A DNA stretch of 64,000 nt from Shigella phage sb3. The stretch lies in the sequence record PQ666541; one strand, written 5' to 3'. A program made the translations under genes and the position numbers. The number at the start of each line of letters is the position of its first letter. The first letter of the stretch is position 1. Positions 55,879-58,800 of this stretch are shown here, one piece after another. A model generated the notes under the pieces. The model made no database searches. It was not told where the DNA came from and worked only from the letters and a program-made list of their open reading frames with translations.

Positions 55879-58800
55879 ATGGCCGAGATTAAAAGAAAGT
55901 TCAGAGCAGAAGACGGTCTGGACGCAGGTGGCGATAAAATAATCAACGTAGCTTTAGCTGATCGTACCGTAGGAACTGACGGTGTTAACGTTGATTACCT
56001 AATTCAAGAAAACACAGTTCAACAATATGATCCAACTCGTGGATATTTAAAAGATTTTGTAATCATTTATAATAATCGTTTTTGGGCAGCAACGGATAAT
56101 ATTCCAAAACCTGCTGGAAGTTTTAACAGAATTCGTTGGAAAGCATTACGTACTGATGCCGTATATACAACCGTATCATCTGGACCATATCAATTAAAAT
56201 CCGGAGAAGCAATTTCAGTAGATACATCAGTTGGTAATGACATTGAGTTTAATTTACCGCCTTCTCCGCTTGATGGAGAAACCGTAATAATTCAAGATAT
56301 TGGTGGAAAACCTGGTATAAATCAGGTTTAAATTGTAGCTTCAAATCAGAGTATTGTTAATTTTAGAGGTGAACAAGTACGTTCAGTTCTAATGACTCAT
56401 CCAAAGTCACAGATGATATTCATTTTTAATAATCGTTTGTGGCAAATGTATGTTGCTGATTATAACAGAGAAGCTGCGATTGTTACTCCATCAACTGCAT
56501 ATCAAGCACAATCTAATGATTTTATCGTGCGTAGATTTACTTCCGCTGCGCCGATTAATATTAAACTTCCGAGATTTGCTAATCATGGCGATATTATTAA
56601 TTTCGTTGATTTAGATAAATTAAATCCACTTTATCATACAATTGTCACAACATATGATGAAACAACTTCAGTACAAGAAGTTGGAACTCATTCTATTGAA
56701 GGCCGTACATCGATTGACGGTTTCTTGATGTTTGATGATAATGAAAAATTATGGAGATTGTTTGACGGGGATAGTAAAGCACGTTTACGCATTATAACAA
56801 CTAATTCTAATATTCGTCCAAATGAAGAAGTTATGGTATTTGGTGCGAATAACGGAACAGCCCAAACAATTGAACTTCAACTTCCAACCGATATTTCCAT
56901 TGGTGATACTGTTAAAATTTCCATGAATTACATGAGAAAAGGCCAAACAGTTAAAATCAAAGCTGCTGGCGAAGATAAAATTGCTTCTTCAGTTCAATTG
57001 CTGCAATTCCCAAAACGTTCAGAATATCCACCTGAAGCTGAATGGGTGACTGTTCAAGAATTAGTTTTTAACGGTGAAACTAATTATGTTCCAGTTTTAC
57101 AACTTGCTTATATAGAAGATTCTGACGGAAAATACTGGGTTGTACAACAAAACGTTCCAACCGTAGAAAGAGTTGATTCTTTAAACGATTCTACTAGAGC
57201 AAGATTAGGCGTGATTGCTTTAGCTACACAAGCGCAAGCTAATGTCGATTTAGAAAATTCTCCACAAAAAGAATTAGCAATTACTCCAGAAACATTAGCT
57301 AACCGTACTGCTACAGAAACTCGTAGAGGTATCGCGAGAATAGCAACCACTGCTCAAGTAAATCAGAACACCACATTCTCTTTTGCTGATGATATTATCA
57401 TCACTCCTAAAAAGCTGAATGAAAGAACTGCTACAGAAACTCGTAGAGGTGTTGCTGAAATTGCTACGCAACAGGAAACTAATGCAGGTACTGATGATAC
57501 TACAATCATCACTCCTAAAAAGCTTCAAGCTCGTCAGGGTTCTGAATCATTATCAGGTATTGTAACCTTTGTATCTACTGCAGGAGCTACTCCAGCTTCT
57601 AGTCGTGAATTAAATGGTACAAACGTTTATAATAAAAACACTAATAATTTAGTTGTTTCGCCTAAAGCTCTAGATCAGTATAAAGCTACTCCAACGCAAC
57701 AAGGCGCAGTAATTTTAGCAGTTGAAAGTGAAGTAATTGCTGGACAGAGTCAAGAAGGATGGGCAAATGCGGTTGTAACGCCAGAAACGTTACATAAAAA
57801 GACATCAACTGATGGAAGAATTGGTTTAATTGAAATTGCTACGCAAAGTGAAGTTAATACAGGAACTGATTATACTCGTGCAGTCACTCCTAAAACTTTA
57901 AATGACCGTATAGCAACTGAAAGTTTAAGTGGTATAGCTGAAATTGCTACGCAAGTTGAATTCGACGCAGGCGTCGACGATACTCGTATCTCTACACCAT
58001 TAAAAATTAAAACCAGATTTAATAGTACTGATCGTACTTCTGTTGTTGCTCTATCTGGATTAGTTGAATCAGGAACTCTCTGGGACCATTATACCCTTAA
58101 TATTCTTGAAGCAAATGAGACACAGCGTGGTACACTTCGTGTAGCTACACAAGTTGAAGCTGCTGCAGGAACATTGGATAATGTTCTAATAACTCCTAAA
58201 AAGCTTTTAGGTACTAAATCTACTGAAGCGCAGGAAGGCGTTATTAAAGTTGCAACTCAGTCTGAAACTGTGACTGGAACGTCAGCAAATACTGCTGTAT
58301 CTCCAAAAAATTTAAAATGGATTGTACAGAGTGAACCTACTTGGGCAGCTACTACTTTGGTAAGAGGCTTTGTTAAAACTTCATCTGGTTCAATTACGTT
58401 CGTTGGTAATGATACAGCTGGTTCTACGCAGGACTTAGAACTATATGAGAAAAATAGCTATGCAGTATCACCATATGAATTAAACCGCGTATTAGCAAAT
58501 TATTTGCCGTTAAAAGCAAAAGCTGTAGATAGTAATTTATTAGATGGTTTAGATTCACTCCAGTTCATTCGTAGGGATATTGCGCAGACGGTTAATGGTT
58601 CACTAACCTTAACGCAACAAACGAATCTGAGTGCCCCTCTTGTATCATCTAGTACTGCTACGTTCGGTGGATCAGTTTCGGCAAATAGTACATTAACTAT
58701 TTCTAATACTGGAACAGCAACTCGTCTGATTTTTGAGAAAGGACCTCAAACTGGGACGAACCCAGCTCAAACGATGACAGTCAGAGTGTGGGGAAATCAA

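Follow-up and report, generated by a model that had tools for sequence, protein, structure and literature searches.

The 64,000-nt stretch of Shigella phage sb3 DNA analysed here (record PQ666541; hereafter the window) derives from a T4-like phage (Tequatrovirus), and on its plus strand, from 55879 to 59748, lies a frame of 1289 codons, ending in TAA, whose sole internal stop is codon 151. In DNA of 36% G+C such a frame, with one stop, cannot have arisen by chance. The gp34 of phage Killian aligns with it in a single frame over residues 1-1289 with 97.2% amino-acid identity, that of phage pSs-1 with 94.3%, and the gene order is rnh-34-35-36-37, with rnh upstream and 35, 36 and 37 downstream. 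Length (about 1289), full-length similarity and synteny are all those of gp34, the one departure being that the frame is interrupted, and on these features it is certainly to be read as gene 34, for the proximal subunit of the long tail fibre, as the original prediction had proposed from the length. Upstream on the same strand, at 55837-55844, is TATAAATA, which we take to be the T4 late-promoter consensus and hence a putative late promoter, and a Shine-Dalgarno-like AGGAG stands before the gene at 55865-55869.

The presence of an internal stop in gene 34 of the sequence as given is confirmed: direct reading gives TAA at 56329-56331 (plus strand), the same codon that had been reported. In a list of open reading frames the one frame is split into 55879-56331 (150 aa) and 56392-59748 (1118 aa), the latter opening with the ATG of codon 172 (56392-56394, plus strand), which is the next in frame with, as previously stated, 20 codons in between. 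The claim that the stop would remove all but the N-terminal 150 residues likewise holds, and what would remain is only the baseplate-proximal N-terminus. The 1138 codons past the stop carry no further defect. A separate peculiarity, 136 nt downstream of the stop, is a private and non-synonymous change at 56465, where codon 196 is AAC (Asn) and 8/8 aligned relatives have AGC (Ser).

The best match to the window over 24 kb is Shigella phage pSs-1 (95.9%), and the full 64 kb is collinear with it at 96.5% identity with only five gaps. From 61696 to 64000 (2305 nt, the start of gene 37) identity to pSs-1 is 100%, the window outside that segment differing from pSs-1 by approximately 3.5%; over 62001-64000 the sibling record sb4, which is dealt with below, differs at 79 sites. 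Gene 37 is usually the most variable of the fibre genes. The identity could reflect fill-in from a reference or a recent exchange, i.e. a recently shared host-range module. Also 100% identical to its pSs-1 protein is the product of a 205-codon ORF at 5994-6608, between genes 18 and 19; in the annotation of Killian the interval between these two genes has no matching CDS.

At codon 151 the window was compared with 13 aligned relatives, none of which has a stop there. Six of them (Killian, P922 and four IMG/VR contigs) have AAA (Lys), in the string GTT AAA ATA AAT TCT TCA, and seven (T4, pSs-1, sb1, sb2, sb4 and two IMG/VR contigs) have TTA (Leu), in GTT TTA ATT GTA GCT CCA; the comparison with T4 that had been proposed for this codon is thereby answered. 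The window has GTT TAA ATT GTA GCT TCA. Through codons 1-342 it is of Killian type at 126 of the 137 sites that tell Killian from pSs-1, and its T4/pSs-1-type sites number ten, six being packed into the 10 nt from 56329 to 56338 (plus strand). Within this micro-patch the T4/pSs-1 state is present at 56329 and at 56334-56338, and the Killian/P922 state at 56330, the order of states being ...KKKK P K PPPPP KKKK..., with 6/7 informative sites in the patch T4-type and 1/7 Killian-type. The nearest informative sites flanking it, 56325 and 56341, are both Killian-type. The TAA, one base from AAA and one from TTA, is by this arrangement a hybrid codon, its T from TTA and its A from AAA, and with the patch differing at six sites from the nearest allele, the stop would not be an isolated point mutation. 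Were the six departures from Killian random changes, the probability of all of them matching the T4 state would be approximately (1/3)^6 = 0.0014, and therefore the patch is templated by a second natural allele. As haplotype strings within the span 56320-56345, the sense forms are GTTAAAATAAATTCT and GTTTTAATTGTAGCT, and the TAA form is GTTTAAATTGTAGCT.

No parent with the same patch was found among 499 phage records, IMG/VR, JGI metagenomes and GTDB genomes. The 81-nt context has no match within 5 mismatches among the 499 phage records (the best differs at 6/81); AATCAGGTTNNNATTGTAGCTTCAAATCAG, the exact pattern with codon 151 left free, has 0 matches in IMG/VR, JGI metagenomes and GTDB genomes; and there is no exact match in the assembly index for the 150-aa, 1118-aa or gp35 products. 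A source for templated mutation elsewhere in the window was considered and rejected, the 18-mer around the patch occurring once only at up to 3 mismatches.

Gene 34 is not alone in being interrupted. When all 82 pSs-1 proteins of the region were searched against the window by tblastn, every matched gene was collinear and in a single frame, with no net frameshift, and nine in-frame stops came to light in six genes (3 TGA, 3 TAA and 3 TAG). Gene 34 aside, this leaves eight stops in five genes (3 TGA, 2 TAA and 3 TAG), on which the original prediction did not remark. By the same test the two natural isolates compared have no in-frame stops, the count being 0 for Killian (50 genes) and 0 for KMB23 (58 genes). 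One case is alt2, a second alt-like ADP-ribosyltransferase gene (30241-32295, minus strand), with stops at 31396-31398 (TGA), 31180-31182 (TAA) and 30964-30966 (TGA). Codon-aware alignment yields 424 informative sites, 233 pSs-1-type and 191 Killian-type, in 80 runs within approximately 1 kb. At 2055 nt its length is that of the pSs-1 gene (2094 nt in Killian), and the stops fall where Killian-type nucleotides stand in shifted register. Among 538 phage records none exceeds 89.8% identity to alt2. In nrdB (45555-46733, minus strand) the in-frame TAG at 46203-46205 lies in a variable loop (46138-46217) in which the Killian-type sequence ATTTACAGAACTAG is displaced by 2 nt from register within a framework of pSs-1 length, and the next two bases of Killian after ATTTACAGAACTAG, CT, are missing. 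As regards the surroundings, nrdB is free of introns in the window, and the interval between nrdA and nrdB lacks the homing-endonuclease gene that Killian has there (20831-21472 in L012).

The other stops, also on the minus strand, are in three small ORFs. Two ORFs of the gene 30.x region, of 152 and 71 codons (35098-35761; best identity to any record 90.7%), are intact in the annotation of relatives; in the window the first has TGA at 35317-35319, where relatives have TGG, and the second has TAA at 35666-35668 and TAG at 35753-35755. A 126-codon ORF upstream of gene 32 (51809-52186; best identity 88.1%) has TAG at 52127-52129, where relatives have TAT. For these four stops the second parental allele is outside the comparison panel, and their hybrid nature is unproven. 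The lack of close relatives for stop-bearing segments is also weakened as evidence because hoc, which has no stop, has a closest relative at only 94.5%.

Blending of alleles extends beyond the stops. With a two-parent copying model, copied segments no longer than 100 nt number 16 in 26 kb of the window versus 2-3 in natural controls. In frd, whose protein is only 90.7% identical to that of pSs-1, two neighboring micro-patches (50888-50918), one of 14 nt and one of 17 nt, alternate between pSs-1-type and Killian-type and create no stop. Random sequencing noise was rejected as a general cause: of the differences from pSs-1, 74% are at codon position 3, and 1586 are synonymous versus 581 non-synonymous, from which it follows that real alleles were mixed and not random noise added. 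To judge from the alt2 and nrdB registers and the hybrid codon, the merging of alleles is blind to reading frame.

With considerable, though not complete, confidence the TAA is best ascribed to a chimera generated in assembly or consensus calling and not to biology. Two natural alleles of gene 34 would have been merged position by position with the reading frame ignored, the allele with GTT AAA ATA AAT TCT and that with GTT TTA ATT GTA GCT giving GTT TAA ATT GTA GCT in an otherwise Killian-type gene. The merging may have happened during sequence building in any of several ways, e.g. when a mixed T4-like population was collapsed to a consensus, when a consensus was called against a reference, or in polishing, and the real phage behind the data would have a sense codon (AAA, Lys, or TTA, Leu) at 151 and full-length gp34. 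The hybrid patch, its uniqueness and the blending pattern across the window are there to be read in the record, the bases of two alleles alternating with switches far shorter than those of natural mosaics and without regard to frame; that the merging took place in a computer and not inside a cell is what we infer. Also counted in favor of this reading are the collinearity with pSs-1, together with the 2305 nt identical to it, and, as a base rate, the stops in the sibling records dealt with below. The original prediction had offered a wrong base call as one way out, and the evidence does point in that direction, with the qualification that there is no lone miscall and instead a 10-nt micro-chimera. 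As to how it came about, projecting Killian alt2 onto pSs-1 coordinates gives with BWA-like scoring at best a 95% match to the window, which is suggestive and does not pin down the pipeline. Against exact reproduction of the patch is that under a plain local-alignment model its codon would be TTA instead of TAA.

The alternative that has to be taken most seriously is a TAA truly present in DNA: a defective gene 34 allele, arising in vivo when co-infecting T4-like parents underwent homeologous recombination or short-patch repair of a heteroduplex, and persisting as a minor or complemented genotype with fibres provided in trans, or else captured as environmental DNA. Its probability is low without being trivial. 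That the patch is templated by a genuine second allele and that variation elsewhere is natural in character are both in its favor, as is the location of the other stops mostly in dispensable genes; with just one of the nine stops outside genes that are dispensable under laboratory conditions, real pseudogenes would also fit. It is textbook knowledge that T4 recombines and carries out very-short-patch repair, and its mismatch repair of heteroduplexes can in principle leave conversion patches of very short length in the cell. Switches shorter than its own k-mer are beyond a de Bruijn assembler, and therefore, if the assembly was a pure de novo one from short reads, the TAA haplotype must be in the reads. 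The paper on the sibling phages sb1, sb2 and sb4, which come from one study, states Illumina sequencing and de novo assembly, in which case the k-mers are required in the reads, and plaque purification is nowhere mentioned in its text (PMC11993411). Weighing the other way is the scale of the switching: P-K-PPPPP amounts to four switches in 10 nt with flanking identities of 1-3 nt, far below the homology need of recombination, and the junctions in nrdB and alt2 are out of register. There is also no second occurrence in 499 phage records, IMG/VR, JGI metagenomes or GTDB genomes; the intact downstream codons would make the event very recent; and a genome unable to plaque alone should not dominate a lysate (PMC3004832). 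Short-patch mismatch repair of T4, with its high negative interference, resembles what is seen here in mixing alleles at single-mismatch scale and in being frame-blind, but it would need heteroduplex over 13-35% divergent DNA, with a lethal product as the dominant genotype. Classical T4 gene 34 nonsense mutants are similar in that the premature stop leads to fibreless or proximal-half-fibre-deficient particles that are non-infectious unless the stop is suppressed. However, in those a single base was changed, the laboratory background was isogenic and selection was on suppressor hosts, whereas here there is a second-allele patch at 6/7 sites and no isogenic parent, and the stop is accompanied by eight more, among which each of the three kinds occurs. 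The stronger proposition that the TAA is both genuine and dominant in the replicating phage, either as a decoded ochre or in a fibre-defective ‘cheater’ complemented by co-infecting relatives, has only a slender chance of being right, and the corollary that the micro-mosaics of alt2, nrdB and gene 34 are products of in vivo very-short-patch heteroduplex repair between divergent T-even phages is to be viewed with equal skepticism.

Utilization of the stop in translation is less probable than a defective allele, decoding or restart together accounting for a few per cent. Decoding of the ochre by a phage or host suppressor tRNA, or programmed readthrough, would permit synthesis of full-length gp34, and T4-type phages do carry tRNA genes, in which single anticodon changes (in T4 tRNA-Gln, tRNA-Leu or tRNA-Ser) are established T4 genetics as a source of suppressors. 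The T4-like tRNA cluster is outside the 64-kb window, within which there is no tRNA gene, and the tRNAs reported for the sibling phages have only ordinary anticodons, Leu-taa, Gln-ttg and others (PMC11993411). No single suppressor accounts for in-frame stops that comprise TGA, TAA and TAG alike. Of the terminators of 81 genes in the window, 55 are TAA (68%), 22 TGA and 4 TAG, with TAA in positions as in pSs-1. There is, in other words, no single recurrent stop type avoided as a terminator, and neither the stop nor its context is conserved; with a sense codon in 13/13 aligned relatives, no readthrough signal can have evolved. A readthrough-promoting structure finds little support, RNA folding downstream of the stop being unremarkable relative to shuffled sequence (z = -1.5). 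Reassignment of TAG or TGA in some large gut phages is comparable in that in-frame stops are present in essential late genes, but there the recoding concerns a single stop type, found in numerous genes and shared by relatives, whereas here there are three types, most genes end in TAA and the stop is peculiar to this sequence. The suppressed ochre that the original prediction had named, or a tolerated one, is, accordingly, rejected as scarcely credible. Restart at the ATG of codon 172, with an N-terminally truncated 1118-residue gp34 serving in the fibre, has to commend it an in-frame ATG 20 codons past the stop that opens a frame of 1118 codons. Met172 is nevertheless an ordinary internal residue, ATG in all aligned relatives, and is not a plausible restart site: there is no Shine-Dalgarno sequence at working distance, the nearest purine-rich run, AGAGG (56365-56369), being 22 nt upstream. 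The part that would be missing includes the N-terminal globular domain through which gp34 attaches to the baseplate protein gp9, and a phage is infectious only with three or more long fibres (PMC3004832). Restart is rejected as next to impossible.

With the chimera as the preferred reading, the matter is mainly one of data quality, and in every case there is no new biological feature. Annotation pipelines would split gene 34 into products of 150 and 1118 aa, and a reader of the split gene could wrongly deduce a phage that is fibre-less or suppressor-dependent. The combination of a stop blended from two natural sense codons, a micro-patch from a second allele and other blends that are out of register is a signature of a merged genome, not of mutation. 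Should the haplotype prove true in reads, the implication would be of frame-blind recombination at the scale of single mismatches between co-infecting T-even phages, with a defective genome maintained by complementation, which would be of moderate interest.

Related deposits show some of the same features. The sibling records sb1 (PQ666539), sb2 (PQ666540) and sb4 (PQ666542) are, like the window, collinear with pSs-1, differing from it almost only by substitutions, and have many in-frame stops in genes that are indispensable to a viable phage. In the homologous 24 kb the number of such stops is 14 in sb1, 2 in sb2 and 17 in sb4, and the genes affected across the three include those for gp32 and gp59, td, nrdA and gene 34; further upstream in sb4 the genes for gp14, gp15, gp27, gp48 and DNA ligase are split. 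Viable phages cannot have genes broken in this way. The sb records are, though, more like the outcome of scattered point errors, whereas the window has templated blending of alleles, and sb4, unlike the window, shows no micro-patches with the two-parent copying model. Among the ‘complete genomes’, sb1 and sb4 also have split essential genes for the small terminase subunit and gp28, and split genes 34-37. Gene 34 of sb2 (15959-19828 in L002) has in-frame TAA at codons 856 and 864, within a cluster of nine changes all of which are G/C to A/T, and is annotated as two CDS. A further low-quality record in the genus is that of the T4-like vB_EcoM_WL-3 (MT968995), where small ‘hypothetical’ ORFs take the place of an intact rnh and an intact start of gene 34.
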